Shown: positions 1 through 19,342, counted from the first letter of the stretch. The stretch is DNA of 20,000 nt from Rhizaria sp. SCN 62-66 (GCA_001724265.1 MEDY01000297.1:50257-70256), one strand, 5' to 3'. Program-made: numbers and translations. Notes: generated by a model not told the origin, from the sequence alone.

Positions 1-3000
1 AGCAGCAGCAGCAGCAGTAGCGGCGACAGCGACAGCGACGAGACCGCTGACAGCGACTCAGACAGCGGAAGCGAGAGTAGCAGCGGCCACAGCGAGGGCG
101 AGAGTGGCAGTGACAGCCGTCGCCGCAGCAAGAAAACCACCACAAAGAAAAGCTCTGGCAACAAGCTTGATTCTCGCAAACGATCCTATAGCAACGATGC
201 GGGGGCTGCTCCACCGCCGCAGCCGCTGCGCCGCGGGCCTGTGGTTCAGTCCTTCCTGGAGGCGGTGCGCCGCGATGGCAGCGCGGTGCAGTGCAAGCTG
301 ACCGTGAGCACGACGCTCGACCTGACTGACCCGGACCAGGCCGCAGCCACCGACAAAAGCAATGGGGATGATGAGGGCAGCATCGTTAGCACTGATAGTG
401 TCAGTGCAGACGAGGCTGATGTTGTTGCTGGAGGCGATTGGCGGCCTATTTGCGTCGCAACAACGAAAGTGAGTGCGACTTCAAAAGACGCATATCCTGA
501 GACTGTCACTAAAACAGAGACTAAGACAAAGACAAAGGTTGTTAGGCCAAAGGATGGCAGCATTGAGCAGCAGCATCAGTGGTGCATGGAGGCTATCCTC
601 GCGCAAAGCGGCTTAACTCCAGCTCTGGATGGCATTACTTCTGCACCGGTTGCAGCTGCAGCCTTCTTTGACTTGCACCCAGTCTCAAACAATAACAGCA
701 TGAACTACAGCAGCATCATCACCGATTGCGAGCTTGACAGTAGAAAGCTTGCTACCAACTTAGATTGCGATAAGTCGAAATATCCTGTCACAGTCACCGT
801 TCCCGGCCAAGCGGATGCCAGTAACACTGCCAATGCTGATCTCACCGCCAAGGCTCGGAGCGATATTGCCGACTTCGCTGCTCGTGCCGCTGCTGTGGCC
901 GCTGCCGACGCCAAAGCAAAGCGGCTTAACTTGCCCGTGCCCCCGATTGCGACTGCAACAGTGCGCGCGCTATTTCTGCGCGGCTCAAGCGCCAACAGCA
1001 GCAAGAGCAAGAACAACAAGAGTGTGAAGAGCGGAAACAGCCGCGTAAACGTCAAAGGCAAAGTCAGCAACAAAGCAAAGAGCAGGGCGATCGATGACGG
1101 CGAGGACAACAGCTGCGACATCATCGGCAACAGCGACGACTTCGACGACAACGATGACGGCTAGAACAACGACTACGAAGACTGCGCTGCGCTCACGGCC
1201 GGGGACCTCGCCACATACGACATCGTGGTTGTATCTTACCAAACCGTTCTCGCCGCACACAAGCTCTGGCTTTCACAGTCACAGTCTTTGCCGTCGCAAC
1301 TGCAGTCTCAACAGCAACAGCAGCAGCAGCCGCCAGCGCTGTTCGGCGCGGCGTGGACGCGCGTGGTGCTCGACGAGGCGCATGTCACGCGCGCGGGCGG
1401 GGCCGTTGCGGACGCCGTGGCGGCGCTGCGAGTGCGGGCGGCCAGGAGCAAAGCTGCCGGTGCCGGCGCCAGTGCGAATCAGCAGACTAAGAGTGTCGCA
1501 ATCAGTGTCGTTGACAATATTGTTGCTGCGACCGTCGCTGCGGCGTACAACAACGCGCGCGGTCACCCAACCGCTCTCATCGCTGCCCGCGGTCACTCCA
1601 CGTCTGCCTTCACAGGTCAGCCGGTGCCGCAGCCTCCGCGCTTGCCGCTGCGGCCCGGCGGGCGGTGGGCGGTGACGGCCACGCCGTACAACAACGGCCT
1701 CGCGGACATGTACTTCCTGCTCGACTTCCTGCGCGTGCCCGTGCTTACGGTCGGCGGCGGCGGGCTCGCGATGGGACAGCTGTACTGCAAGCGCGAGCGG
1801 CAGCAACAACGCCAGCTTGAGAACGAGCGGGAGCGCGCGCAAGCGAGTTCCTCTGCCAAGGCGGGCTGGCTTAAGCACGAGCAGACGAGCGAGAACGACC
1901 GCGTCGCGTTCAAAGGCGGCTATGCGTCAACAGCGAGCAAGGCGATGAGTGCGCCGAAGGCAAAGGCAAGTGACAAGATCGCTCTGGCGTGGCACTTGCT
2001 GACGTCATCGCCCATTCCCGACCGCGGTCTGTCGCAGCTGGCGCAGGAGCACGACTGGGAGAGCGTCACGGAGCACAACTACTTTGCAACGCTCGCGAAG
2101 AACACGCAGATCTCAGCTCAGGGTGCTGATGCGAGCGCGATCTCTGGCGGTTTAACTACCCCCTTAGTGGTCGACGTGCCCGAGCTGCGCAGCGTGCTGA
2201 CAAGGCTCGCCGAGTGCGCCGACTGGGCGGCCGCCGTGGCGCCTGCTTGGCGGCGCGCTGAGCGGCTGCAGCTACAGCAACAGCGGCAACTGCAGCAACG
2301 GAGTGAAAGTGCAAAGAATGCAACTGTTGTTGCGGACAACAGTAGTGGCAGCAGCGCAGCAGCGAACGCCAATGATGGCGTGAGCAGTATCGATGCACTG
2401 ACTGCGAGTCTCAATGCTTTGTCGCTTAAAAAAGACGAGCAACCTCCGCAAAGCAGCAACAGCAACACTGACGGCACCGATGTTAAAGCCACGAATCCCA
2501 TTCCAGCTCTAAGGGCAGTCCCAGCTGCAGCCGTAGCCACAGCAGTCACCGATCTAGTTACAGCTTCACCTACTCTACCCCACTCCGAGGTCGATCGTTT
2601 GCTCTCCAACCACCGACAAGCCACCGCGGCGCAGCTGCGGCCGCTGCCGCCGACGCAGCGCGCCGCCGCCCGCGCCGCTACCGTGCTGGGGGAGTTTTTC
2701 GGCCCCCTGCTTCTGCGTCGCACCAAGGAGAAGGACCTGCAGCGGCCGCCGGCCCGCCTGGTGACCGTGAGCGTGCGCGGCAGCAGAGCGGAGCGCGCGC
2801 TGATGCGCGTAGTCGAGCAGACGTAGTACGAGAACGGCCAGAAGCAGCTGGCGGCGGCGAGCAAAAGCAGGGGCAATACTAAGAGCAACGGCAGCGCTGC
2901 TGGCGGAGTCAGTGTGGGGCTGAGGCTGTCGATGCTGCTGCGTCGCGTGGCAGCGCACCCTTGGCTGGCTCCGAGCGAGGCCATCGAAGGTGTGATGGCG

Positions 3001-4533
3001 GTGATTCGCAAGCACAACAGCAAGAACAAGAAGAGCACTGACACCAATAAGACTCAAATTGATGTTAACCAGGAGAGCAGTGCAAGCCCCGCGACTAAAG
3101 ATGCTGCTACTGTTGATTTGACACTTGACGACTTGACGAAACAGCTTGCTGCACTCTCCGTTAACTCTGTCGAGGCTAAGCCTCCAACTGATGCAGAGAC
3201 TAAGCCTCCCGTAGCGGTTGGTAGCGGCCGCATCCCACGCAAAGCCAAAGAGATCGTGGCAGTGCCTGTACCTGAGCTTCCTCCTGTAGCTGTGGCAACA
3301 GCTGCCACTGCTGCTACTGCTCCACAGAAGAATGTTAACACTTCTTCGAAGACCGGTACAACTACCAGCGCAGGCGCAAACACGTCTCTGTCGCAGTCAG
3401 ACTTGACGTCAGAGTCTCTGTCGCAGTCGCGGTCTACGTCCTCTCTGTGCCTCCCTGCGTTCTCGACCAAGACCCTGTCCCTGCTGCTGCTGCTCCAGTC
3501 CATCGCGCGCCGCGACCGCGGGGCCAAGGTCGTGGTCTTCTCGCACTGGACCGCCGTGCTTACAGCGGTGGAGCAGGCGCTTGCCGTGGGCTACGAGGGC
3601 AGCGAGCAGGCCAGGAGGGTCTTCGGCGTGGGCGCGGGAGACTGTGGGCAGGGTGAGCAGTATAGGGAGCGTGAGCAGGGGAAGTCCGCGCTGACGAGTG
3701 ACTGTGCGCACATGCAGGGGGAATGCGGGCCTGAGTGCGATGATGACTGCAACGGTAGCTGCAACTCTAACTCCAGCAAGACTAACGCTAAGAACTCAAA
3801 GACAAAGACTGGCAAATGCAAGATCTCTAACGATGATAACTTCGTTGAGGACGATATAAGTGGCTTCAGCGACATCGACTACAGTAGTGACAGCGATGAC
3901 GCCGATAACGATGACATTGCCTCCGATACCGTAAGCTCTCGCGCGAGCTCCAGCAAGAAGAAGACTGCACCGAAGGCTACTGCGACCGCCGCCGCGTCGG
4001 CGGCAAAGAAAGAGCAGCAGCAGCGGCGCCAACAGCGGCGGCTGCAACGCCTGCGCTCTCGCATGTGGTTCACAGCCGCATCTGCCACTAGCACAGCGCC
4101 GCTCGACGCAGACAATGACTGCCGAGGCAATAGTGCTACCAACGGAGTGCGTAACGTGTTTCGCATAGACGGCAGCATGAGCAAGGCCGCTGTCGAGCTC
4201 GAGCTCGCCCGCTTTAAGGCCTACAACCACGCCAACCACGCTGACGCGGGCGGAGGCGGCAGCAACAGCTCCGCGGTGCTGCTGGTATCGCTCGCAATGG
4301 CCGGCGTGGGGCTGAACCTGGTCGAGGCCAGCCACGCAGTGCTGCTGGAGCCCGCGTGGAACCCTGCCGCGGAGAAGCAGGCCGTGGACCGGGTCAACCG
4401 CGTCGGCCAACGGCGCGAAGTGACAGTGTGGCAGCTACGGGCCGTGCCCGGGGACCTGGCCGCCGTGGAAAGGCAGGGCGGGAAGCGCGGCGCGGCAGCC
4501 AGGGCAGTCAAGGCGGCGGTGGGGGGGCAGTGA
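1..4533 (+). CDS. SNF2-family helicase-like ATPase, RAD5/RAD16/TTF2-like; 5'-partial; two in-frame TAG codons (1162-1164, 2824-2826) read as sense
   Basis: Frame 1 is open from base 1 to TGA 4531-4533 except for two TAGs; ORFs 241-1164, 1225-2826 and 2914-4533 share one frame. Ordered SNF2 motifs: LATYDIVVVSYQTV, WTRVVLDEAH (II), RWAVTATPYNNGLADMYFLLDFL (III), LLLRRTK, LLRRVAAHPWL, STK...KVVVFSHW, FRIDGSMS, VLLVSLAMAGVGLNLVEAS (V), EPAWNPAAEKQAVDRVNRVGQ (VI). No Walker A is seen, so it presumably lies upstream of the window. Confidence 0.9.
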
Positions 4534-4879
4534 ACGCAGGCAACAGAGCAAAGTGTTGTAGGATCAACACATGACACACTTGCTCGATAAAATTATATTT
4601 AGGGCCAGTAGTATTTAGAAAATAATTGTTTGTATTATCGTCAGATTTGCTGCTCACTTTAGCGCATACGTACTGCGCTTGGAGTGCTGTTTGCATAACT
4701 GTCGCGACGTATGCTTGCTTAAATGTGTTTTTGTATTTCTTGCGTACTTGTGATATACTGACATATATGACATCATATGATACAGCAAAACTAATTAACA
4801 ACTTGAGCACGGCTGTTGCTATCGAATTCTAAGTGTTACATGTCCGGGGTGTACAAATGAATTGCCACTTGTAGCGACG

Positions 4880-7273
4880 TTACACAGCCTTGGTAGCCTT
4901 GTCGAAGTCCGCGGCGGAGACCTTGGAGAGACTGGCGACGGAGCCGAAGAGCCAGCTGGTGAAGTCGGGCACGGTCGCGATGGCCATCTTCTCGTCTGGC
5001 GAGTGGGCGCCCACGACTGTGAGCGTGGACGGAAGAGGAGGCAAAACATACGAAACGTAAACAAAAGAAATGATGAAAAAATGGCACAATTAACACAAAT
5101 AAACGTAGAAAATGTTTTTTTTTTGCATATGAATTAACATTTCGTATTGAAAATAACATCATATTTCATTTTCTTGGTGATTAGATGATCAAGTCAATGC
5201 ATTCGCTAGCGGCACGTACTGAGGGGGCCGATGGAGACGGCGTGGATGTCGGGGTAGACGCTCTTGATGGGTCCGCACTCAAGCCCGGCGTGCACGGAGT
5301 ACACCTGCGGCGCCGGCAGCGCGGGGAAGAGCTCCTTGTGCGATGACAGCACCGAGGCCAGCAGCGGCGACGACATCGCGGGCTCCCACCCGTTGAAGTA
5401 CGCGAAGGGCTTGGAGATCTTGGCGCCGGCCAGCGTGGCAAGCGCGCGGAGGCGGCGCGCAGTCTCGTGCAGCTGGAAGTCGGAGAAGGAGCGGTAGAAG
5501 CAGTGGATCATGAAGTAGTCGCCCTCGGGGTCCGCCTCGTCGGTGGTGCCATGGCGGCTCGCGGCCGCAGCCTCCTCGGCGGCGGCGGCCGCGGCGGCCG
5601 CGGCGGGCGTGGGGGTAAGGAGGACGATGGAGAGCGCGTTGGAGGTGTCGACGTCGCCGGCAACCTCAGGGGAGTAGCGGATCACGCCGTGGGGGATGCT
5701 CTGCACCAGCGCGGCAGCGCGCGCCGTGCACTCGGTCGTCAGCGGGCACAGCAGACCCGCAGACTCGGCCGCAGTAGGAGGCGCAGCGGCGGCGGCAGCG
5801 GCCACGGGCTCGAGCGGCGCGGCAGTAAGCTGCAGCGTCATGCCACAGAGCGCGCGAGCCTTGGCGGGCTCCGACGCGAGGGCCTTGGCCTCCATGCCCG
5901 CGGTCGACTGGGCCCCGTAGAGCCCCGCCGAGGCCTCGCCCAGCTTCGCCTTGGCCTCAGGCAGCAGCGACTCGGTCACAATGCCCGTGAAGAGCGCCGC
6001 CGCGGCCGCGGCCACGGACGCGGCGGCCGCGGCGGGCACCACGAGCGTTGCCGTGGCGTCGCGCGGGATCGCGTTGGGCGCGTTGCCGCCGCTGAAGCTC
6101 GCCAGGCCGAGCCCGTTGCCGCTGGCGCCGCTGCTAACGCTCGCGGTGTAGGCCTCGGTGGCCTCGCCGATGAGGCGGGCCATGACCTGGATGGCGTTGG
6201 CGCGCGCGGAGGCGGCGTCGACGCCGGTGTGGCCGCCCGCGAAGCCCGAGAGCGCGAGCGTAAGCGCGACCGCGTCCGTCTCAGCCGCCGCTGCCGGCAC
6301 CGCGAAGGCGGCCGTGGCGGCGGCCGTGGCGGTGGCGGCCGTGGTGTGCGCGTCGACGGTGACGGCACCGAGCTTGCCGGCGGCGGCGGCGGTCTTATAG
6401 GTGGTAGCGACGCGGGCGAGGGGCATGAAAAGCTTGCTCTCCATGCCGCCCGCGCAGCCGACGCACACGCAGTGGTCCTCTTCGCTGTCGACGTTGAGCA
6501 GCGCCTGCGCGGTGAGGAAGGGCGCGGGCGCAAGGTTGAGCGCGCCGCCCATCGTCGTCTCCTCCTCGACAGTGAAGAGGCACTCGAGGGGGCCGTGGGC
6601 GACCACAGACGCGTCGGCCTCGAGCAGCGCCAGCGCGGCCGCCACGCCGATGCCGTCGTCGGCACCCAGCGTGGTGCCCGCGGCCTGGACCCACTGGCCG
6701 TCGGCCGTCACGTCGGCGAGGATTGGGTCCGTGTCGAAGCAGTGGGTCGAGTCCATGGTCTTGCTAGTCACCATGTCGATGTGGCTCTGCACCGCGATGC
6801 GCACAGACGACTCGAAGCCCGGCGATGCGGGCTTGCGGACAAGGATGTTGCCCGCGGCGTCGACGCTGAAGGGCAGGCTCAGCGCGGTCGCGACCTCCTC
6901 GATCTGGGGCGATGTGAAACAAGCGATAGTGAAGAGAAGAAGCATGAAGTGTTGTTAAGATATGTTTCTGTGATGAAAGAAGCGCTTAAGACTAAGCCTA
7001 TATACTATATTATGAACCTGGTGTGATCTAAAGTGCGCGATCGTGTGCAGCGCTAGATGCAGCATTAGCATAGTTTGCGGTGCGTTTACGTACCTTCTTG
7101 CGCATGGCGTCCTCCTTGTGCGAGGGACGGGGCGTGTCGAAGCAGAGGAACATGTACTTCCACACGTTGTACAGCGGGGTGCCCTCCTGTGCCGCGGGCA
7201 CAATACGCGAGAACACGCCCTGGGAGCGGGCCGTCAGCAGCGAAGACGCGGACAACGCCGGGATAGACGACAT
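4880..7273 (-). CDS. pepD: Aminoacyl-histidine dipeptidase (PepD-like, peptidase M20C); exons 7273-7094, 6903-5220, 5016-4880; ~666 aa
   Basis: Motifs TPRPSHKE, QSHIDMV, TTLGADDGIG, EEETTMGGA, LLNVDSEE, GGHTG and HAGLECG. Splicing restores SIGPLIVGAHSPDE. Both introns are GTACGT...CAG, AT-rich and phase-compatible. Ends in TAA. Confidence 0.9.
5017..5219 (-). other. Spliceosomal intron 2 of pepD-like gene (203 nt, phase 1)
   Basis: GTACGT donor at 5219, CAG acceptor ending at 5017, very T-rich. The join gives ATC (Ile) and links SIGPL to the VGAHSPDE metal-ligand motif. Confidence 0.88.
6904..7093 (-). other. Spliceosomal intron 1 of pepD-like gene (190 nt, phase 0)
   Basis: GTACGT donor at 7093, CCCCAG acceptor ending at 6904, AT-rich; joins RPSHKEDAMRKK to IEEVA in frame. 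Confidence 0.88.
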
Positions 7274-7781
7274 CTAAGAGAGAGCATCGAGAGTGATGGG
7301 GACAGGAGATGAGGTAAGCATTCAAGACACGCCTACAGGTAGATATATAGCAAATCTTGCAGGCGCAATTTTGTGATAGTAACTTTTAGCAGACTTATAA
7401 TCTTGATGTCGCTAGAATATGCGCAGCTACGATCAGAATAGTGAGATTACACCTTGGCAAGTAAGCCGGCGGAGACTCGGCAGATGCGCAGTCGGCGACA
7501 TGATGTCGGACTTGACTTTAAAAACATCTGAAAAGTGTTGCTATACTCCGTTAACAGGGCCAGTGCCGCATTATCATAATTTTTCTTGGGGCTTATATAT
7601 TATACCCGATTTATACTTTCTCCAGATCTCATATAGTGCCTTAGGCAGACCTTGCCGTAGACACTGCCGACAGTCGCAATAACGGGTGTCTGAAGTTCGT
7701 GGTGTGCGCAGGTCGGCGACCATAGTAGCAACCTCAACGCTCGTCTCGTCTTACCGCGTCACTACTTAACGTGTTGGTGAA
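7274..7781. promoter_or_regulatory. Putative bidirectional promoter region between divergent pepD-like and TrmH-like genes
   Basis: ~510 nt AT-richer spacer between head-to-head start codons; contains a near-duplicate TGCGCAG(G)TCGGCGAC (7485-7499, 7705-7720) and more GTCGG/CCGAC words. Function is inferred from position only. Confidence 0.5.
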
Positions 7782-9794
7782 ATGCGCCCGCTGCTGCAGC
7801 CCGGCTCGGCGCTCGCCAAGCGCCTCCGCACCCTCCACAAGGCCAAGGGTCGCCAGGCACAAAGTACGCACGCAAACCAAGCGAAAACGTTCCCTGATGA
7901 TCGATCTAAATCACAACCTCTTGCTGTTACACTGCTTTCATATTATTTACAACATTAACTTGTATTTGCCTGTTCACTCCTGACGTGTCTTCTAACTTTC
8001 ATGACTGCCTACGCATTCTGCTCCGATTGCTGCTCTGTTCTTACGACTGCTGCTGCTGCGTGTTTGCAGGCAGCTTCCTCGTCGAGGGCCGCAAGACCAT
8101 CGAGCACTTTATGTCCCGCCGCGGCGCTCCGCGCACGCTGCTGCTGGGCCAGGAGCAGCTTGCTGTGCTGGCCGCCGCCGCCTTTCCAGAGCACTCGCCC
8201 CCAAGCAGCCATAACTACAACAACGACAACCACCGGGAAAACAGTGCGACTGCGACGAGCGCGAGTGACCGCGCGCCCCCGCCGTCGCTCTCGGCCTCGG
8301 TCTTGGCCGCGTCGGCGCCCGTCAAGCAGCTGTGGCGCGCGGCGCTGCCCGGGGCCGTGGTCGCCTCGAGCCAGGCGCTCGAGCGGTGCTCGCATGCGCA
8401 GACCGCCTCGGGGTTTCTCGCGGAGTTCGCCCTCCTGCCCACGGTCACGCGCGTGTACGCAGTCGCGGGCCGCAGCCACACCAGCAGCAGCAGCGACGAC
8501 GGCTGTGGCCCTAGAGGCGGTGACAGCGAGTACGCCGATGCGAACGACGGCGACGATACCACTGTCAACACCGTGAGCAGCCGGGGCGATGGTGACTTCG
8601 TGCCCACATACGCGCTCCCGTTTCCCCCTCTTGCAGCAGTTTCTCCTGTCAACAATTGCGAAACCAAACTCAAGCTCGACAAGAGCTCTCAGGACGTTAT
8701 CCCAGTCCCCACCGACCCCACCACAGCGACATCCACAGCAGACGCAGCGTCGCCGCCGCCGCGGTGGGACTGGGCGGCGGGCGGGCTCGTGCTAGCGGGT
8801 GTGGCGGACCCCGGCAACGCGGGCACGCTTATCCGCACCGCGGTTGCGCTGGGCAGGCCACAGGTACGCCAGCGAAGACGCACACACACACACACACAAT
8901 ATCCCGCACTGTCATGTCACTGTACTTAATTTGTTTCTGTTTTTGCCTCTCGTACGAGCCATCGTCTTATTTTGATTGCGTTTTCTCGTTGCTCATATTG
9001 ATCTCATTGTGATCTGTTCCTGCTGCCATCGCCTTCATATGTTCCCATCTGTTCTCATGTGTTCTCTCGCGCGTGTGCCCGTGCAGGTGCTGCTGCTGGA
9101 CTGCGTGGACGTCTACAACAGCAAGGTCGTTCAGTCCACTGTGGGCGCCCTCGCCGACGCCGTCGTCGTCGAAGGCAGTGTAAAGGGCTTCGTGGGGTAC
9201 TTAGACGGCCTCAGTCGCGGGAACAAGAACAGCAGCGAAGACAACACTCTGCAAAGCGGCGAGAGTGAAAACGCCGACTCAGCGATGACCGATGCTGAGC
9301 AGCCCAGAGCTGCCTGTGCTGGCGCTGGCGAGCGCGTGCGTGCCCCGCTCGCGCCCTATGTGGTTTCGCTGGTGCCCGACGCCGCGGTCGACCTCACCGC
9401 GCTGCCCCCCGTGCTCGCCGCACACCACAGCGCACGCAACAGCGCACGCAACAGCGCCGGCGACAGCGTAGGCAACGGCAGTCGCGAGAGCGAGCGCAGC
9501 GCGGCGGTGCGGCGGCCGTGGGTTGTGGTGGGGTCCGAGGCGCACGGCGTGCCGCTGGCGCTGCAGCGCGCGGGCACGGCGTGTGCACGCATCACCATGG
9601 CCAGCCCGGACTCGCACCACAACGGCGCGCCTGCCGCTGCCACTGCCACTGGCACCGCGAGTGCGAGTCTGAATGCGACTGGCCTCGGTCTGGCGGGGGC
9701 GGTGGGCTCGCTCAACGCGTCAGTGGCCGGGGCCATCGCCTGCTACATCGTCGCGCGGGCCGAGGCGGGCCACGCGGGCGCGCGCGTCGTGTGA
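7782..9794 (+). CDS. SpoU/TrmH-family (SPOUT) RNA 2'-O-ribose methyltransferase; exons 7782-7863, 8070-8863, 9087-9794; ~527 aa
   Basis: N-terminal KRLRTLHKAKGRQAQSSFLVEGRK; SpoU motif 1 VADPGNAGTLIRTAVALG; DVYNSKVVQSTVGA; motif 2 VVVGSEAHGV; motif 3 SLNASVAGAIACY. Two phase-compatible GTACGC...GCAG introns. Ends in TGA. Confidence 0.88.
7864..8069 (+). other. Spliceosomal intron 1 of TrmH-like gene (206 nt, phase 1)
   Basis: GTACGC donor, TTTGCAG acceptor, AT/pyrimidine-rich; the join restores the frame into SFLVEG. Confidence 0.85.
8864..9086 (+). other. Spliceosomal intron 2 of TrmH-like gene (223 nt, phase 0)
   Basis: GTACGC donor, GTGCAG acceptor, T-rich; joins ALGRPQ to VLLLDCVDVYNSK. 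Confidence 0.87.
8881..8898. repeat. (CA)9 microsatellite inside an intron
   Basis: cacacacacacacacaca read directly from the sequence. Confidence 0.9.
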
Positions 9795-10626
9795 TGCTCG
9801 CGCGGATGGAGCGGAACTATTCGCTAAGATCATTAGTCACATGGTATTGCAAATGTCTATGAAGCGAGTTGTCATTAGCACGGATGTGCACGCCTCGTTG
9901 GCACGAATGGCGCTCAAATGCGGCGACGGTGAGACTGTGGAGGAAGTGAATGTTGCGGGTATTTATTCAGATGAAGATTTTCGTGATGCTAGTCTTTGTG
10001 CTAGAAGATTCAAAACGACGATTTACCCATCTTAAGAGGTCATCGTTCATCAAATATTTTTGACTCACCTCACTTAATTCCTGTACGTAGTACGTACAGT
10101 ACATACAATTTTCAATGTTTACATGACTTGCCTACAGGCAACCACTGCTCACCTAAGCTTCATTCACTCGAGTAAACTCGATCCAGGATATTTATCCAAA
10201 TCTAGCCATGTCGCTCCTCATTTTGTGAATTGATAACATAACTGCACCATTTGATTGTGTGATGTAGGACAAAGGAACACACGGGAGCGAGACAATTAGC
10301 TTAAAAGGATTACTACCAGTGTGTGCGAGCCACAGCAGCCCTGTCTGTATCGGGTGTCTCTGTTGAACATCGTGTATCTTTCGCTTCTAATCGTCAAATG
10401 GGAAATAAATATTGGAAGTTGATTTTAGCCGCTAATTTGATACTGTTTTGTTTTTATATCAAACGAAAAACTGCCTCTCTGGTCTAAAAATCTCGCACTG
10501 CAATCCACTCACTCACCGTCCGTCTCGAGCTATCTTCTCCCGCGCTCTATACCACTATCATATCGCTTTGCATTTCTTTTAAATCGTGGTTTTTGGTGTA
10601 TTCCTGTGTGGATTTCTGCAGACTAT

Positions 10627-13254
10627 ATGTCTAGTGAAACAGACAAGTCTTCTCTACTCGAGCCACACCAGCTCGAAATCCCTACGCACTCAGCGGACAG
10701 CGAAACGTGCGACGTCCAGCCCGCGCTCGCCTCTGCCTCCACCGAGAACAGCGCCGACGCGGACACAGACCCCGACACTGATGTGTCCGTCGTGCCCGCC
10801 TCAGCCTCGACCTTGTTTCCGCCGCGCGCGTACGCGGCCGTGGTGCCGCGCCTACGCTTCCCGCGCTACGTGCACGGGCTCTTCTTCGCCGCGCACCTCG
10901 ACGACCCGCCCGCGGCGTACCTCTCGCTGTGGCCGCACCGCCTCACGCTGCTGCACTTCGCGCTTGCGGGGCTCGACGCGTTGGGCCAGCTTGACCTCCA
11001 TGTGCCTCCCGGCAGCGCGCGCAGGGCTGAGATCGTCGAGTGGGTCTACAAACTGCAGGCCGGCGCAGCCAGCAGTGGCAGCAGCGGCGACGGCGGCTGC
11101 AGCAGCCACAGCGGGAGCAGCGGCGCTGAGGGCACCGTTGCCGACAAGACGACTGGTAACTCTTGCATTGCTAGCGGCATGCTTGGCGACGGCATCAGCG
11201 CTGGCAGCAACGGCAACGCTCACAGTGCGTACACTGACAGCGTAGCTAGCCCGGTGACTGTGAGCCCATACGAACGCTTCCGCGCACTCGGCGGCTTTCG
11301 GGGCGCTCCGCTGATGCAGGGCGTTTACGGCAACAGCTCTAGCACCCCAACCAATGCTGCCGCTATCCCACAACCGCAGCCGCAGCCGCAACCCCCCTGC
11401 GCACAGGCGTCGTCGTAGTCCGCCGGCTCGCCGTGCTGCCCACCGCCGCCGTCACCGTCTGCGCTGTACCTGGACGTGTCGACGCTGCCGTCGACATACA
11501 GCGCGCTCTGCGTGCTCAGCATCCTGGGTGACCCGCTCGACCGCGTGCGCCGCGCGCCGCTGGCCGCGCTGCTCCGCGCCTGCATACTGCGCAGCCGCAG
11601 CGGGGCCCGCGCCAGCGCTGGCGCGGTCGCCGATCCGAACTCGATGGTTAGCAGGAGCAGTGGTGCGAGAGTTAGCGTGGAGAGCGCTGCTGACTCTGGT
11701 GACGCCGCGCAGTATGATTGCGACGCCGACGTAGACGCCGACGCAGACTACACCGACTTCAGCGACAGTGGCAGTGGCAGTGACAGTTGCAGCGACGGCG
11801 GCGGCGACAGCGATAATGTCCGTGATAATGAGGGCTCGAGTGCTCAGATGAATGATACCAAGACGAAGAGTCCCCGTGCTTCAAAGTCGACCTCTGAAAA
11901 GACCCCTGCGCCAGTGCAAGTGTTCAGCTCGCCGCTGCACGAAGAGGCGGACGTGCGGTTTGTCTACTGCGTGTGTGCGATTGCGCAGCTCGCAGACGCC
12001 GCCGCGCAGCGCAGCATCGCGCGCGACGCGGCACTGCGCGCCGCGACTGCAGCACAAAGTCCATAGCAGCGCGCAAGCGCGAGTACTATTACTAATGGTA
12101 GTGACGGTGACTATGCCAGCGGCGTGTCAGTGTGGGCCTCGGTGCCACTGCGCCCCCTCGCGGCTTATATTCGGTCGCTGCAGACCAGGGACGGCGGGCT
12201 CGCGCTTCTGCCTGCTGACAACGACAATAGTAGCGGCCACAGCAGTGACCGCTCCAACGACACATATGGATTTGATTCCCTCGCTGCTGTTGGGAAGCAG
12301 TTTTACGACTGCGACGTTGATGATGACACTAACAGTGCGAACGGCGGTCGTCGCGACTGCTGCTGGCAATCTCCACTTCCCTCCGCCGCTCACTCTGCTG
12401 CTGCTGCAACTTTCCACAGTACGACATACACGTGCACCGTGCCTCTCGGCCTGTACCAGCGGCTGCCGCGCCCGCTGCTGGCGCCCGTCAGCCTCGAGGG
12501 CCACGGCGGCTCTACCTACACTGGGCTCGCCGCGCTCACGCTGCTCGGGATGCGCGCGCGTGCACTGCGGCGGGGCGGGAAGCGGCGCACGCAGAGGCGG
12601 ACGCCGCAGCAGCGCGAGCAAGCGGATGAACAGCCGCGGCCCCGCGCTGCGTCCGCCGGCCGCAGCACCGTCTCGCTGCCGCGCGGCCTGCTGCCCGCGG
12701 CGGCGGCACGCGCGGCGCTGCGGTGGGCGAGTCTGCGGCAGGGCGATGGCTTCAGCGGGCGCGTGGGCAAGGCGCCCGACAGCTGCTATGCCTTCTGGGT
12801 CGGCGCGTCGCTGCACCTGCTCGCGGGCACCGACGCCGCGGGCCGGCCGCGGCTGCGCACGCAGCGCACAGCTGGCAATCGCGCGTTTGTGGTGCGCGCG
12901 TGTGAGGGTGCGCGGGCGGGGTTCGGCCGCGACGCCGAGTCGGGCGCCGAGGTGTACCACAGCCACTACGCCGTCGCGGGGCTGGCGCTGATGCAGGCCG
13001 AGGACGGGCGCGACGCCAACAACGAGTGCGCGCACGGCTGCGACGACGAACCGTGCGCGCGGTGCGAAAGCGGCTGTGAACAGGACGACGACGGCGACGG
13101 TGACGAAGAGGACGAGGACGAGCACCGGGCGGCGCACTGGCGTCTGGCCCCGATCGACCCCGTGCTGGGCATCTCGCGCCGCGCCGCGGGCACCGAGGGC
13201 GTCGCCTACCCGGGGCTGCTGCCGCGGGGCGACATCGAGCTCCAGTTTGAGTGA
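10627..13254 (+). CDS. PGGT1B: Geranylgeranyltransferase type-I beta subunit (PGGT1B/Cdc43-like); two in-frame TAG codons (11416-11418, 12064-12066) read as sense; ~875 aa
   Basis: ORFs 10606-11418, 11476-12066 and 12124-13254 share one frame. Colinear GGTase-I beta blocks: YLSLWPHRLTLLHFALAGLDALG, IVEWVYKLQ, GGFRG, TYSALCVLSILGDPLDRV, EADVRFVYCVCAI, YIRSLQTRDGGL, LEGHGGSTYTGLAALTLLG, RQGDGFSGRVGKAPDSCYAFWVGASL (Zn-ligand D-x-C), EVYHSHYAVAGLALM (Zn His). First ATG at 10627; ends in TGA. Confidence 0.88.
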
Positions 13255-13768
13255 CTGCGACTGCGGCCAGAGCCGAGAGTGTCAGAGGGACCTGAGATTG
13301 TGAGTAGAGTTTAATCATGTTGAGTGTAGAAGCTTAACATTCAGACGTAGTCATGGCGATACGAATACATGGCAACACTCTACTTTTGTAAGATTGCAAC
13401 TTGCGCGCTGCAATTTTTCCCCTTCATAATGAAAACTCTGTATATCAGCTGGGTATTTACTTCGACATCCTCCTCTTCCGCACCGTGACAACTATCGTCA
13501 AGACTCTCAGCATAATTCTCATGTGCATCTACCTTTCATGGCTGCACTTGCGTCTTGCAAACCTGTGCAAGTTTTACCTGATAAACCCGAGTGACAGTCA
13601 TTTCAAGTGCTGCGCGATCATATGTTTCCGCACGCGCATCTGTGTGTGCGCGCTACACCGCTACACCGCGACGCGACGCGCCAGGTTACGCTGCGCTTGT
13701 CATGTGTCACAGACCTACCTATGTGGCGCAAATTGGCAAACAGTGATAGGCTCAGCGTTGGAGCTGCC

Positions 13769-14971
13769 TTATCCAAAATACAGAAACAGCGCCTTAAAGA
13801 TCTGCTCTTTGTGGACCTCGCTGAAGTTCTTGTTGTTCATAAGGCGCTTGTAAAAGCCCCGTATCTCCGAGGAGAAGTCGTCATCCCTGCCCCACGCTAT
13901 TTTGCTTAGGGCGTCGGGCAACATCAGCGACGCGAAGCGGTACTTGGGCGGGTCCGTGCTCGACTTGTTCTCGGGCCCTTTGCAGATGATGCGGTCTGAG
14001 TGGATGGTCACCGTGTCGCTGATGCCGTACGCGGTCCGCTTGCCGGTGTGGAGGTTGAACACGAGGTCGTGCGGCATCGAGGTGCCGTCGAGGATGCTCT
14101 CGAGAGCGCCGAAGTGGTGCTTCGTCATGTTGCGCAAGGCGTACAGCAGCTTGTTGACGTCACGCGTCTCTTTTTCATACGCGGCGAGCTCCTCTGCACT
14201 CATCTCATCCCAGTACGGGAAAGTCTCGTTTTCGTCCTTAGCCACGAGATTGGCCCTCTACATCTCGTCGTAGATCCGCTGCACGGCTGTCCTGGCCTTT
14301 GCAATCCTGGCCTTGGCCTTCTTAAACTCGGCCTCAGCGTCCTTCTTTTTCTGTTCGTCACTGTCGAAAACGTCCTGAAGAAGGCTGGTCTCCATCAGTG
14401 CCTGCGCAAGCTCGGCCTGGTGGCACGCCTGCTGCGCCTTGACGAGCTCAGCCTCGGCGTCGGACATGCGGATCTTGTACCGCATCAGCTCGATCCTGTT
14501 ACAAAGGCTCTTGGTCGAGCTCTCGACATGCTCTACCGCCATCTCAGCCCTCTCCACCTTAACATCACCATCCTCGGCGGTTATCGCGTCGGACACCGCC
14601 TTCTGCGCCTGCGCCAGCTTCACCTCGGACTGCGCCTTGACGAGTGCGGCGGCGGCCGCCAGGAACTCGGAGGCATGCGCCTTGGAGCTTTCGGGCTGCC
14701 GCATTGCAGACGCGGACGCGGACGCTGATGAGAACGAGGACGAGGACGAGGATGAGGACGCGCCGCCAGCCTTGCGGCCCTGGTTGAGGGCGAAGAAACG
14801 CTTGGTGGCGGCCTTAAGCCGACGCTTCAGCTCGGCAGGCGACGTCTTGGCGTCGTCGTCTTCAGACTCGAAGTTGTCAGAAGCGGAGTGGACGGGGGTG
14901 GAACCGTCATTCATGAATCCGCCTGAGCTCGGGGCTGCGTTCTTGGACGACTTCTTCGAAGGCAAACTCAT
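13769..14971 (-). CDS. Hypothetical protein (~400 aa): low-complexity N-terminus, Ala/Glu/Lys-rich coiled coil, globular-looking C-terminal domain; one in-frame TAG at 14260-14258
   Basis: ORFs 14971-14258 and 14245-13769 are in the same frame, separated only by TAG (IYDEM*RANLVAKDE). Codon-like GC3 bias continues on both sides, and the downstream ORF as called begins at GTG, not ATG. Ends in TAA. No family recognised. Confidence 0.7.
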
Positions 14972-15344
14972 CTGGCGACAGCTTATTAGGAAATTTACGT
15001 GGTAAACGATAGACTATAAATGTGAGACAACTTGATCTAAAGTTCTTATCCTTTAAACTATCTCATAGCTGTTACAGAAATTGCCAAAACGTTTTTCAGC
15101 GTGTGATCCGGCCAGCGTTTTGCTTTTACTGTTTGATGGGGACATGTTGACCCGCAAGACTACGGAACATAAGTAGAATGGGATATAACGCAACGATACA
15201 ACGCATCATAAAACAATCATGTTTTAATGGCAGGCTTCTACGATGAAGTGTTCTCGAATTTGATGTTTGCGATCGGTACACGCGACTTAGCACCAAGGGT
15301 TGGGCTGAGTGATTCAGACGGCTTGACTAGTGATGGTGAGAAAC

Positions 15345-15377
15345 GACTGTGAGCACAGCTAGACTGTGAGCACAGCT
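15345..15377. repeat. Tandem duplication of GACTGTGAGCACAGCT (17-nt period)
   Basis: Exact 16-mers at 15345-15360 and 15362-15377; each holds an internal inverted repeat CTGTG-AG-CACAG. Confidence 0.9.
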
Positions 15378-15538
15378 CAACTCATAGGTTTGACGGACTC
15401 TTAAAGTCTAGAATTGTATTATTGTCACTCTAAATAAATAAGCTGCAGAAAAAGATATGTCAGTACATCGACCCAATAAAAATGACCCTCTCGTCCGTTC
15501 TATCTTTACCTGTTTGCAAGTGGCAGTCACTCCAGAAC

Positions 15539-17303
15539 TCAAATTGTGTAGAACGAGGTCTGGAAGTGCGTGTAGTGCCTAACGTCCACGGCGGGCAGGT
15601 TCTCCGGCCACAGCCACTTGCCCATCCTGCCCAGCGCGTAGTTGGCGCCGACGAAGAGCGGCGCGTGCACGAGCGGGACCTGCAGCGCGCCGCGGTACAG
15701 CGCGCGCACGCCGCCCTGTGCGAGCACCATGCGCAGCATATTGGCGTGGATGGAGCCGTTTTTGGCCAGCCCCACGTACCCGCGGTTCTGCGCCACGGCC
15801 ACGGCGGTGCGCAGCGTCCACAGCGGGTATGCGGCCAGCCCGGCGGCGGTGGCCGCCGCACCCGTGGCCGCGAGCGAGTGGTGGAACAGGTCGCGCTCTA
15901 GCGGCGACATCGCGGGACCCGGCCGCGGCGCCAGACGCGCGCGCTGCTCCGCCGTCAGGTTCGGGTAGTCGTACTTCTTCATCACGAACGCCGAGGCAAG
16001 ATTCATGAACATGCCCGTCGCGCCCGCGTAGGCCGCCGTGTACAGAGACATGTGCGCCAGAGAGGCCAGGCCGCCGCGCAGCGTGCCGCGCCACGTGTCG
16101 AACAGCGCCGTGTCGCGCAGCATCGCCAGCGCGGGCGACGAAGACGAGAGCAGCGCCTTGTGCTTCGCGCTCGTCGCCGCGCGCGCGTAGCCCTCCTGTC
16201 GAAACCAAGAAAGAATGAAGGAGTCGAAATACGAAACGATTGAGATCAAAGTCAAAATGCAGTAAAAAAAACAACAAAAATGGATACAATTGCGGTATAA
16301 TTCTGTGACATCTGTTCATATCAGGAAGATATCGTCTGATTTGTGAGTTCTAGTAACGTATGCGTACCTGGATGTGCTTGGGCAGCGGCGGCAGCGCGCG
16401 CGGCGCGAGCGTAGTCCTGTCGGCGGCGACGCGCGTACCCAACGCCCAGAGCGGGAACGTGGCGTATATGCATGCCATGTTGACGACCGCGTGCGCCTGC
16501 GCCAGCGCCGTGTCCGTGTCGGTCGACAACGAGGGCCGTAGTCCCGGCAGCAGCGCCAGCGGCAGCAGGAAGGGCGCACCCAGCAGCAGCGAGGTCGCGA
16601 GCTGCAGCGCGGCCTGCGGAAAGCCGCGCCAGAGCCCGCGCGCGCCCTGACGCTGCCAGACGAGGCGGAAGGCGGCCCGCAGCGTCGCCGTGCGCGGCTC
16701 CTCGGCGGCCGCGCGCAGGCAGCCCGCCTCAAGCGCGGACCGCAGCAGCAGCGCCTGCCCCGTCTGCACGCCCGCGCTCGCGCCGAGGTGCGCGGGAGGC
16801 ACACCCAGCTTCAGGTACGTCGTCGCCGTCGTCGTCGCCGTCGCCGCCGCAGTGGGGGCGGCAGACGCAGCGGCGGTGGGGGCCTTGGCGAAGGCGGAGA
16901 CGGGAGCCGGGGAGCCGCCGGCCGCCGCGGCAGCAACAGCGGCGGCGTCAGGCGCAGCGGCAGCTGCAGCCGCGCCAGTGGCGGGAGCGGGGGCGATTTT
17001 GAGGATGTGTGCGAGCGCGGTGGTGGTGACAAGGTCGGTGGCCTGGAGGATGCGGAGGCGCTCGAGCGGGTACGCCACAGCGGCGATGGCCGTGAGCGGC
17101 GCGGCCGTGTAGAGCGCGCTCTTGAACAGGAAGGACCAGAAGTCGAGCGTCGGCACCGCGGCCGCTGCGGCGCCCGTGGGGACCGCGGCCGGCACGGCCG
17201 AGTCGGGGCTCGATGACGCCAGCGTGTGGCCGGGGGCCAGGCGGCCCGCGGAGGCGGCCAGGGACAGCGTCGCCTCGGCCGAGTGCGCGGGAGCAGTCGC
17301 AGT

Positions 17304-17340
<37 letters not shown>

Positions 17341-17369
17341 TCAGTGCCTTGGTTGGAGGGAGAGCTCAT
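15539..17369 (-). CDS. Divergent mitochondrial carrier family (SLC25-like) protein; exons 17369-16368 and 16195-15539; ~552 aa
   Basis: Three carrier-like repeats: YPLERLRILQ...QGARGLWRGFP, FPLWALGTRV...FDTWRG, YPLWTLRTAV...QGGVRALYRG. Phase-0 GTACGC...CAG intron. ATG at 17369 (MSSPSNQG); ends in TGA. Confidence 0.8.
16196..16367 (-). other. Spliceosomal intron of SLC25-like gene (172 nt, phase 0)
   Basis: GTACGC donor at 16367, TTTCGACAG acceptor ending at 16196, T-rich; joins KHIQ to EGYAR. Confidence 0.87.
17304..17339 (-). repeat. (GCT)12 trinucleotide repeat encoding poly-Ala near the SLC25-like N-terminus
   Basis: Uninterrupted agc x12 on the + strand. Confidence 0.88.
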
Positions 17370-17881
17370 TGTGAGAGACCGGAACTCAACAGTGCAATTG
17401 TTATATGACCAGGCGTTGTATGTGGAGTTCGTCAGCACGCACGCAGTTGTTGCAACAAGAGCTGGGAACTACAGGTAGCGAGTTTAGATATGCGAGAGAC
17501 AAAGTTGAACGGCTCGCAGACTTGCTGTCGGTCGGAAATGACCTGTCGGGGAAGTGGGGTTTTGGAGGAATTGAAAAGTTGTAATAAAGGGAGATAAGAT
17601 ATTGCTCAAACAAATGACTATGTATGCCGTTATTTCTTCACTTTAATGAGGCGCTATGAAGATATGCTTTGTCAAAGTTGTTTGCAAGTGACCGTGGGTC
17701 AGACGGCCTTTTCGGCTGGGCTGGCGTGCTACTCCAACCGCGGCACCCTTCGGGCATCGGCGCTCGACCGAAGCGAGATGAGCATTCGTTGTTTTGCATC
17801 AAAACTTTCGTCGAAGAAGTCGCACAAGCTTTTCTCGGTCATATCTTTGGCTCCGTGTCAATACTCTTGCCAGTAAGTACA
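17370..17881. promoter_or_regulatory. Putative bidirectional promoter region between SLC25-like gene and OXA1
   Basis: ~510 nt AT-richer spacer between head-to-head ATGs; clustered GTCGG words at 17527-17549. Function is inferred from position only. Confidence 0.5.
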
Positions 17882-19342
17882 ATGCTTCGCTTCTCTTCTC
17901 GCCTCTCCCGCACCGGTGCGTCGGCACTCAACAAGGCCTCGGCCTCGGTCTCCGCCGCCGCCGCTGCCTCTGTCTCCTCTTTCGCTGCCCTCAGCAAGAC
18001 TCAGACCGCGCTCCCTACCCCCGCGGCGGCCGCGCGCTTCTACTCCGTGGCACTCTCGAGTGCGCTCCGCTCCGCGGGCGCCAGGAGCGGCGCTGCCAAG
18101 CCCACCAAGGACATCTACAGCCACCTCTCCCCGTCCAAGGTCGCTCCCGTCTCCAGTGCTGCCGCCAGCGCCGGCAAGGCGGCACCCAGTCTGTTCAAGG
18201 ATCCCCTTGCGTGGAGCCTCGCGCTGCCTACGCTGCTCCCCACCGCGGCCTGCGCCGACCCCGCCAGCACCTCCGCCGCCGCCGCCGCCGCCGCCAACTC
18301 CGCTGCTGCCGCTGCCCCCGCGGGCGCGGCCGACGTCGCCGCCGCGGCGGCCGCGTCAGCGTCCAGCTCGCTGTCGCCGCTGCCGAACCTGGGCCTCACG
18401 CCCACGATCCCCGGCCCGTTCGTGCAGTCGCTCGTGGACATCGTGACCAACTGGCAGGCGCTCACGGGACTGCCGTGGTGGGGTTCGATCGCCACGCTGA
18501 CCGTGCTCGTGCGTCTGCTGACGCTGCCGATCAACCTGAAGCAGGTCCAGTCCTCAGGTCGCATGATGAACGCGCAGCCGGACCTGCAAATGCTGCGCGC
18601 GCGCATGGACGCCGCCAAGGCCGCCGGCGAGGAGGTGATCCCCTCGCTGCACGCGCAGCAGGTCCGCGAGATCTTCCTCCGCCACCGCGCTTCGCCCTTT
18701 GGCACCATGGGACTGGCTCTTGCCTCGATGCCCATCTTCTTCGGGCTCTTCTGGATGTTCCGCGCGACGGTGATCCACCCCGAACTGATCCCGCTGCTCG
18801 AGCACGGCGGCTTCGCGCTCTTCGGTGACCTCCGCTTCATGGACCTCACCAAGGCCGACCCCTACTACCTCGCACCGCTGGTCTCGACCGTGACCGTGCT
18901 GGGCATGCTTGAGATGGCGCAACGTGAGAACGTCTCAACCGCCAAGACGGCCGTCATGATGAAGCATGTCATGCGCGCCGTGTCCATCCTCTCCTTCCCG
19001 CTCATCTGCAACTTCCCTCTGGGCCTCTTCGCCTTCTGGATCCCCTCGAACCTCTTCTCGTTGACCTTCTCCATTGTCTCGCGTCAGCCCGCGGTGCGCA
19101 AGGCCCTGGGCATCCCCACCATGGAGCAGCTCAAGCGCCTCACCATCGCGAACGAATCGGCCGCGTCGGGCCGCGTCGCCGAGGCCGCGCAGGAGCAGGC
19201 CCGCGCGCGCGCCATCAACGCCGCGCAGAACTCGGGCGCACCGCTCAACCCGCAGGTTTTTGTGCCCGCGCGGCCCAAGAAGGGCGCCAAGCCTTCCAAG
19301 TTCGGCGCGGGCGCCGGCGCCGGCGCGGCGGGGCAGCAGTGA
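17882..19342 (+). CDS. OXA1: Mitochondrial inner-membrane insertase Oxa1 (YidC/Oxa1/Alb3 family), ~486 aa, intronless
   Basis: TGLPWWGSIATLTVLVRLLTLPINLKQ, MPIFFGLFWMFR, DLTKADPYYLAPL and FPLGLFAFWIPSNLFSL...PAVRKALGIP. The N-terminus MLRFSSRLSRTGASAL... is Arg/Ser/Ala-rich and acid-free, like a mitochondrial presequence. First in-frame ATG at 17882; ends in TGA. Confidence 0.92.
   Translation: MLRFSSRLSRTGASALNKASASVSAAAAASVSSFAALSKTQTALPTPAAAARFYSVALSSALRSAGARSGAAKPTKDIYSHLSPSKVAPVSSAAASAGKAAPSLFKDPLAWSLALPTLLPTAACADPASTSAAAAAAANSAAAAAPAGAADVAAAAAASASSSLSPLPNLGLTPTIPGPFVQSLVDIVTNWQALTGLPWWGSIATLTVLVRLLTLPINLKQVQSSGRMMNAQPDLQMLRARMDAAKAAGEEVIPSLHAQQVREIFLRHRASPFGTMGLALASMPIFFGLFWMFRATVIHPELIPLLEHGGFALFGDLRFMDLTKADPYYLAPLVSTVTVLGMLEMAQRENVSTAKTAVMMKHVMRAVSILSFPLICNFPLGLFAFWIPSNLFSLTFSIVSRQPAVRKALGIPTMEQLKRLTIANESAASGRVAEAAQEQARARAINAAQNSGAPLNPQVFVPARPKKGAKPSKFGAGAGAGAAGQQ

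Follow-up and report, generated by a model that had tools for sequence, protein, structure and literature searches.

Probable decoding of in-frame UAG codons in three genes of an uncultured, GC-rich microbial eukaryote

How can three genes that otherwise look intact carry five in-frame TAG codons, and does UAG in such an organism still act as a stop codon? This question is raised by a stretch of DNA of 20,000 nucleotides (MEDY01000297.1, positions 50257-70256; analysed at its full length and called the window hereafter), in which TAGs interrupt a Rad5-like SNF2 ATPase gene, a geranylgeranyltransferase type I (GGTase-I) beta-subunit gene and an orphan gene. We consider it likely that UAG is decoded here as an amino acid and that UGA, the main terminator, and UAA end translation; a UAG that is reassigned to sense, or constitutively and efficiently decoded, is the best-supported reading of the data. 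It is argued for by TAGs that are reproducible in intact genes without any other internal stop, without frameshifts and without a TAG terminator, and further by a relative that keeps one of these stops and by variation downstream of the SNF2 TAGs that shows purifying selection. A reading made earlier from the sequence alone (the sequence-only reading) had proposed UAG reassignment as the explanation, and this proposal gains support from colinear protein cores, stop codon usage, the relative's stop and the third-position variation described below.

The TAG-bearing genes and their products

The three genes and their in-frame TAGs are as follows.

1..4533, plus strand: Rad5-like SNF2 ATPase gene, its 5' part cut off by the window, 1510 codons, ending in TGA at 4531-4533; Pfam SNF2-rel_dom and Helicase_C
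1162-1164, plus strand: SNF2 TAG1, codon 388 of the window frame, next codon AAC
2824-2826, plus strand: SNF2 TAG2, codon 942, 10 codons past the conserved LLRRTK...VTVSV block, next codon TAC
10627..13254, plus strand: GGTase-I beta gene, 875 codons, no intron seen, ending in TGA; Pfam Prenyltrans (E 2e-44)
11416-11418, plus strand: GGTase-I beta TAG1, codon 264, in a Pro/Ser-rich insert, next codon TCC
12064-12066, plus strand: GGTase-I beta TAG2, codon 480, in an insert flanked by conserved helices, next codon CAG
13769..14971, minus strand: orphan gene, 400 codons, ending in TAA at 13771-13769; coiled-coil-like N-terminal half, conserved C-terminal half
14260-14258, minus strand: orphan TAG, codon 238, next codon AGG

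Intron-aware models were built for all seven genes of the window, comprising 5016 codons in total. They contain five internal stops, all of them TAG (0 TGA, 0 TAA), and the genes themselves terminate with TGA in five cases, with TAA in two and with TAG in none. UAA and UGA are kept as terminators and are absent in frame from all seven models. The positions of the TAGs and the codons that follow them, the lack of internal TAA or TGA and the lack of genes ending in TAG had all been stated by the sequence-only reading and are confirmed here.

The TAGs recur in public data. A contig of run X3, which comes from a separate study, agrees with window 1-3535 with 0 differences, both SNF2 TAGs included, and the metagenome contig L001 is identical to window 12367-19280 at 6914 of 6914 bases, including the orphan TAG. 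Public gene calls terminate precisely at every TAG, on 4-7 contigs each: P0016 ends at SNF2 TAG1 (6 contigs), P0015 at SNF2 TAG2 (7 contigs), where P0022 ends likewise, P0012 at GGTase TAG1 (4 contigs), P0013 at GGTase TAG2 (7 contigs) and P0008 at the orphan TAG (7 contigs). GGTase TAG1 also ends the strain variant P0021, which carries one amino-acid change and was found on 2 contigs. Sequencing or assembly error as the source of the TAGs is excluded by X3, L001, the gene calls on 4-7 contigs and the variant P0021. Public gene callers thereby split all three TAG-bearing genes, and the proteome of this eukaryote is fragmented in databases.

The sequence around the TAGs resembles coding DNA. 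In the 150-nucleotide (nt) flanks of the TAGs the mean G+C content (GC) is 0.55-0.71 and the in-frame GC at third codon positions (GC3) is 0.64-0.90 on both sides; because these flanks are coding-like in both measures and the introns of the window have a GC of 0.33-0.48, the TAGs are judged to lie outside introns. The frames stay open past the five TAGs for 553, 568, 215, 395 and 162 codons, at an off-frame stop density of 0.026 per codon. Low-complexity inserts (poly-Ala, Ser/Asp, Thr-Lys and Gln runs) inflate SNF2 and GGTase-I beta 2-3-fold, the TAGs of these two genes (4 of 4) are placed in or beside such inserts, and all five TAG sites appear to stand in polar or disordered contexts.

The core of the SNF2 protein is colinear with the Rad5 structure 6l8n_A across both TAGs. 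The public N-terminal gene call up to the first TAG (P0016, 712 aa) holds the Q motif, motif I (GLGKT, which lies upstream of the window) and motif Ia; motif II (DEAH), motif III and LLRRTK are located between the two TAGs and the helicase-C motifs past the second. The SNF2 ATPase cannot be made without decoding both its TAGs. How this gene varies between strains can be judged from 40 listed strain differences (153 more exist beyond these, and 3966 matched pieces beyond those listed), 21 of which fall in coding models, 11 of the 21 at third positions. Six of the listed differences fall downstream of both SNF2 TAGs, in codons 1397-1484; each of the six affects a third codon position ((1/3)^6 = 0.0014) and five are synonymous. 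Because the variation there is third-position only, it points to purifying selection downstream of both SNF2 TAGs. As a separate observation, one contig of run X6 stops at 1155 and another starts at 1165, around SNF2 TAG1; this break could be a polymorphism or a mere assembly break.

For GGTase-I beta, the comparison with the rat GGTase-I beta chain 1n4p_B yields five colinear pieces, before, between and after the TAGs: query positions 136-213, 320-394, 498-517, 683-704 and 760-853 correspond to chain positions 16-87, 93-167, 165-184, 214-235 and 249-334. In that alignment the TAGs are at query positions 326 and 542, and the catalytic part follows both, including the D-x-C and His region (PDSCYAFW ... 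VYHSHY), whose D-x-C and His residues are the zinc ligands in this family. GGTase-I beta, too, cannot be made without decoding both its TAGs. The earlier claim that stopping at the TAGs would remove key motifs agrees with the placement of the SNF2 helicase-C motifs after TAG2 and of the D-x-C and His region after both GGTase TAGs. In the disordered N-terminal part of GGTase, third positions are not favoured (1 of 6 listed strain differences). A search for near-length homologues of GGTase found nothing, and homologue searches at shorter lengths returned only the window's own fragments and two distant SNF2 proteins, so that no relative from these searches informs the amino acid.

The orphan gene belongs to no Pfam family and has no Atlas match above lead level, and its alignment against the genome_contigs and viral_contigs collections gave no match. 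When 1.84 billion representatives were searched exhaustively with HMMER, three matched, the orphan's own N-terminal fragment, P0009 (67% identity) and P0010 (72% identity). The latter two, whose longest contigs have the same size of 21,386 bp, represent a relative that is overall 61-71% identical to the orphan and whose version of the protein carries a longer N-terminal extension. At the aligned codon where the orphan reads ...RIYDEM-TAG, P0009 and P0019, a longer variant of it, terminate in ...RIYDEI. P0010 corresponds to the C-terminal half of the orphan, which includes ...GTSMPHDLVFNLHTGKRTAYG...SDTVTIHSDRIICKGPEN..., and is 70% identical to it, ungapped and with the same end as the orphan's TAA; because it ends at this aligned position, the TAA is a true terminator. 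Judged by these protein alignments, a stop at the same codon appears to persist in a divergent relative with both halves conserved, which argues that the orphan is not a dead gene.

Stop codon statistics and rival explanations

How much can be concluded from the occurrence of TAG alone? Of the 260 off-frame stops 43 are TAG, and against this composition null five TAGs among five internal stops have P ~1e-4. The three genes with TAGs rank lowest in GC3 (0.70, 0.78 and 0.81 vs 0.82-0.92 in the other four; exact rank P = 1/35), and since TAG is confined to these three genes, its distribution fits that of a disfavoured sense codon. Several observations weigh against a decoded UAG. If nonsense mutations strike at random, the GC3-rich codon usage makes 65-68% of them TAG, and five of five has P 0.12-0.14 under this nonsense-mutation null; the sequence-only reading had reasoned that pseudogenes should also give TGA or TAA, an argument that is weak for this reason, and the exclusive use of TAG alone does not exclude pseudogenes. 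The seven terminators among which TAG is missing are a small sample, with P ~0.06-0.2 assuming that one fifth to one third of genes normally end in TAG. All five TAGs are at variable or inserted positions, and no conserved column shows the residue. In the 20-kb window 0 tRNA genes were found, hence no tRNA(CUA), and an Rfam search of the window gave no match. For six of the seven genes the polyA metatranscriptome X5 provides contigs, e.g., over SNF2 1447-1936 and GGTase 12925-13329; among the X5 RNA pieces listed none spans a TAG, and stretches lacking RNA cover were given no weight as evidence. The split in the relative is read from the ends of protein gene calls. Finally, a GTACG, the motif with which all introns of the window start, begins at 2826 within SNF2 TAG2.

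This last point bears on the possibility that the TAGs are inside short in-frame introns that went unrecognised and are spliced out. The genome has introns (5 in the window), and starting from 2826 there are frame-keeping GTACG...CAG candidates of 69, 87, 195 and 255 nt. However, only one of the five TAGs touches a GTACG, and the window contains 15 of these on the plus and 17 on the minus strand, which is near chance; the candidates from 2826 have a GC of 0.59-0.64, far from that of the real introns, the 195-nt candidate would remove an apparent conserved helicase block (...GLRLSMLLRRVAAHP...), and in-frame GC3 periodicity is found in all TAG flanks. Unrecognised introns are the least probable explanation that we considered. 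Nonsense alleles or pseudogenes, in which three of seven genes were recently inactivated by point mutations that are all TAG by chance, would be compatible with the nonsense-mutation null given above; their exclusion rests on intact frames and conserved motifs, on the sign of selection and on the stop kept by the relative. There are 0 frameshifts and no other stop in the 5016 codons, the frames run open far past the TAGs despite the off-frame stop density, catalytic motifs persist beyond the TAGs, the listed SNF2 differences downstream are at third positions in 6 of 6 cases, the relative shares the stop position with both halves conserved and the C-terminal half ungapped, and GGTase TAG1 is kept in the strain variant P0021. 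Inactivation of the genes is thus highly improbable.

Two further explanations leave the proteins functional. Restorative RNA editing might mend premature TAGs in the mRNA, e.g., by A-to-I changes that yield UGG (Trp), as in sexual-stage filamentous ascomycetes. According to two reports, fungal A-to-I editing favours U at position -1 and hairpin loops, and in F. graminearum 71 pseudogenes with premature stops are repaired by editing (PMC11156358, PMC10776026). UAG would be a favoured target because of its U at -1, and both the exclusive use of TAG and the relative's conserved stop would fit. The hairpin preference is not seen here, however, since 51-nt folds around the five TAGs have z = +1.38, +0.71, -1.13, +0.22 and +0.40 vs shuffles (|z|>2 in 0 of 5), and no site folds more stably than its shuffles; moreover, with three of seven genes affected the density would greatly exceed that of 71 genes in a whole genome, Trp would fit poorly into acidic or Ser/Pro-rich contexts, and no A>G change at a TAG is among the 40 listed differences, RNA cover at the sites not being established. 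We regard editing as quite improbable. Alternatively, UAG might in principle still be a stop that is efficiently leaky or suppressed by a near-cognate or suppressor tRNA, giving an ambiguous or context-dependent code. Such readthrough would account for the same facts as reassignment; with 5 TAGs in 5016 codons, all at non-conserved positions, any residue or partial readthrough could be tolerable, and ambiguous stop/sense codes are described for other protists. It is countered by the absence of TAG from the seven terminators, by the presence of two TAGs in each of two genes, which would compound any inefficiency, and by the five downstream contexts, which share no motif, as the sequence-only reading had pointed out for AAC, TAC, TCC, CAG and AGG, and show no local structure (z from -1.13 to +1.38). 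Readthrough at a genuine stop is accordingly judged unlikely.

If UAG is decoded as an amino acid, as we prefer, a cytoplasmic tRNA with the anticodon CUA would insert the residue and may be derived from a tRNA one anticodon step away, and eRF1 would have lost UAG recognition or have it weakened. The rarity of TAG (1 per 1000 codons) and its restriction to the three genes with the weakest GC3 would be as expected of a young or disfavoured sense codon.

Neighbouring genes, introns and source of the DNA

The remaining four genes of the window and their introns are listed here.

4880..7273, minus strand: M20/PepD-like dipeptidase gene, 3 exons (7273-7094, 6903-5220, 5016-4880); Pfam M20_dimer and Peptidase_M20
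7093-6904 and 5219-5017, minus strand: introns of the M20/PepD-like gene, whose terminator is TAA at 4882-4880
7782..9794, plus strand: SpoU-type methyltransferase-like gene, 3 exons (7782-7863, 8070-8863, 9087-9794), ending in TGA
7864-8069 and 8864-9086, plus strand: introns of the SpoU-like gene, given by their splice junctions
15539..17369, minus strand: mitochondrial carrier gene, 2 exons (17369-16368, 16195-15539), intron 16367-16196, ending in TGA; Pfam Mito_carr
17882..19342, plus strand: Oxa1/YidC-type mitochondrial insertase gene, ending in TGA; Pfam 60KD_IMP (E 1e-23)

Matches of the SpoU-like gene to SpoU_methylase are weak, reach both of its halves and are under Pfam's cut-off. 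In the M20/PepD-like gene, splicing brings back the PepD motif ...SIGPLIVGAHSPDE. Contigs of both X3 and X5 lose their match to the window at 17282, where the carrier gene starts with a stretch coding for poly-Ala, and continue unaligned, which is probably repeat-length variation between strains.

Five spliceosomal introns were thus modelled (two in the M20 gene, two in the SpoU-like gene and one in the carrier gene). They are 172-223 nt long and far more AT-rich than the exons, all five start with GTACG and all five end with CAG. The 5' splice site is strict and unusual in each of them, GTACG(C/T), and may aid lineage identification or the training of gene finders for the lineage. The sequence-only reading had reported a lack of frameshifts. 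This stands insofar as no frameshift is present; the raw open reading frames of the SpoU-like, M20 and mitochondrial carrier genes do change frame, and these changes are the five introns. Two raw minus-strand open reading frames seemingly end in TAG (5208-5206 and 16352-16350), and both of these TAGs are 11-15 nt into introns, after GTACG. A naive tally of terminators would miscount these intronic TAGs at 5206-5208 and 16350-16352.

The window has a G+C content of 61% and contains seven eukaryote-type genes on both strands in 20 kb, according to gene models and Pfam; in public assemblies its contig is ~104 kb long. Its DNA recurs in public runs labelled as bioreactor, wastewater, activated-sludge and microbial-fuel-cell metagenomes, with at least half of the sampled sequence words present in 4 runs from 3 studies, and 26% of the sampled words are present in one polyA metatranscriptome. 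Besides contig L001, which is identical, a scan of a metagenome collection returned 12 GGTase loci that are distant (22-55% identity). For Oxa1, an Atlas look-up yielded generic eukaryote clusters only. The window is best explained as nuclear DNA of a GC-rich, intron-poor microbial eukaryote that is recurrent in wastewater and bioreactor metagenomes. Since its DNA recurs in wastewater-type metagenome runs, the source organism is therefore uncultured and known from metagenomes only.

Comparison with known deviant codes

Nuclear codes in which UAG is changed and UAA is kept are documented in few lineages only (Panek et al., 2017; McGowan et al., 2024). Each new case tests the separability of UAG and UAA decoding and how reassignment begins. 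If true, the present case would be unusual on three counts, namely its GC-rich genome, UGA as the dominant terminator and a very low UAG density, which has the look of a reassignment that is young or little used. In the literature covered, with the supplementary tables of Panek et al. (2017) outside its scope, we found no wastewater eukaryote described with a GC-rich genome and a reassigned UAG.

Similar comparisons can be drawn with four systems. In fungal A-to-I editing of ascomycetes, intact-looking genes with in-frame UAG still yield complete products, as would be the case here; unlike there, the present sites have no hairpin context, three of seven genes are affected vs 71 per genome, and no gene ends in TAG. 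In phyllopharyngean ciliates UAG encodes Leu (three TARA taxa) or Gln (Hartmannula, Trochilia), UAA is the preferred stop and suppressor tRNA(CUA) genes were found (McGowan et al., 2024, PMC11687900). The likeness is that UAG alone is reassigned and that the deviation was found by mining metagenome-derived eukaryote genomes; the present DNA differs in its 61% GC, ~104 kb contig, 7 genes per 20 kb, GTACG introns and UGA as the main stop. Macronuclear genomes of ciliates are AT-rich, with gene-sized chromosomes in phyllopharyngeans, and a contig of ~104 kb with 61% GC thus argues against such a ciliate as the source.

In the fornicate Iotanema spirale UAG encodes Gln, UAA is the main stop and 204 in-frame UAGs were counted in 126 genes (PMC5304391). 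The present case is alike in its UAG-only reassignment, its low in-frame density (5 in 7 genes) and its lack of UAG terminators. Iotanema is an anaerobic metamonad; the DNA described here, in contrast, is GC-rich, uses UGA as the main stop and encodes Oxa1 and a mitochondrial carrier. These two proteins imply a conventional mitochondrion, which suggests that the source is not a metamonad such as Iotanema.

The rhizarian exLh (Rhizaria sp. exLh, Sainouroidea) reads UAG as Leu and uses UAA and UGA as stops, UAA being dominant, and 71 UAGs were counted in eight of its conserved proteins, at conserved Leu positions (Panek et al., 2017, PMC5304391). Here as there, the nuclear code appears to have UAG alone as sense and UAA still as a terminator. 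Unlike in exLh, TGA is the main stop (5 of 7 genes), and the dense UAGs at conserved Leu positions of exLh contrast with 1 per 1000 codons at non-conserved positions. Sainouroids are faecal-associated, as indicated by the reference list of PMC5304391, and an affinity with a sainouroid rhizarian like exLh would suit the wastewater habitat, a point that we offer as a lead only. It is also possible, and we put it forward tentatively as the less probable prospect, that an independent, early-stage reassignment took place in a lineage not known to deviate, i.e., neither a ciliate nor a fornicate nor the exLh sainouroid, and with a residue that may be neither Gln nor Leu; the signs of an early stage would be the density of 1 per 1000, the tolerant sites and the weakly biased genes, in a GC-rich genome with UGA as the main stop. 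The type of code itself is most likely the same as in exLh, Iotanema spirale and some phyllopharyngean ciliates, with UAG as a sense codon and with UAA and UGA as stops.

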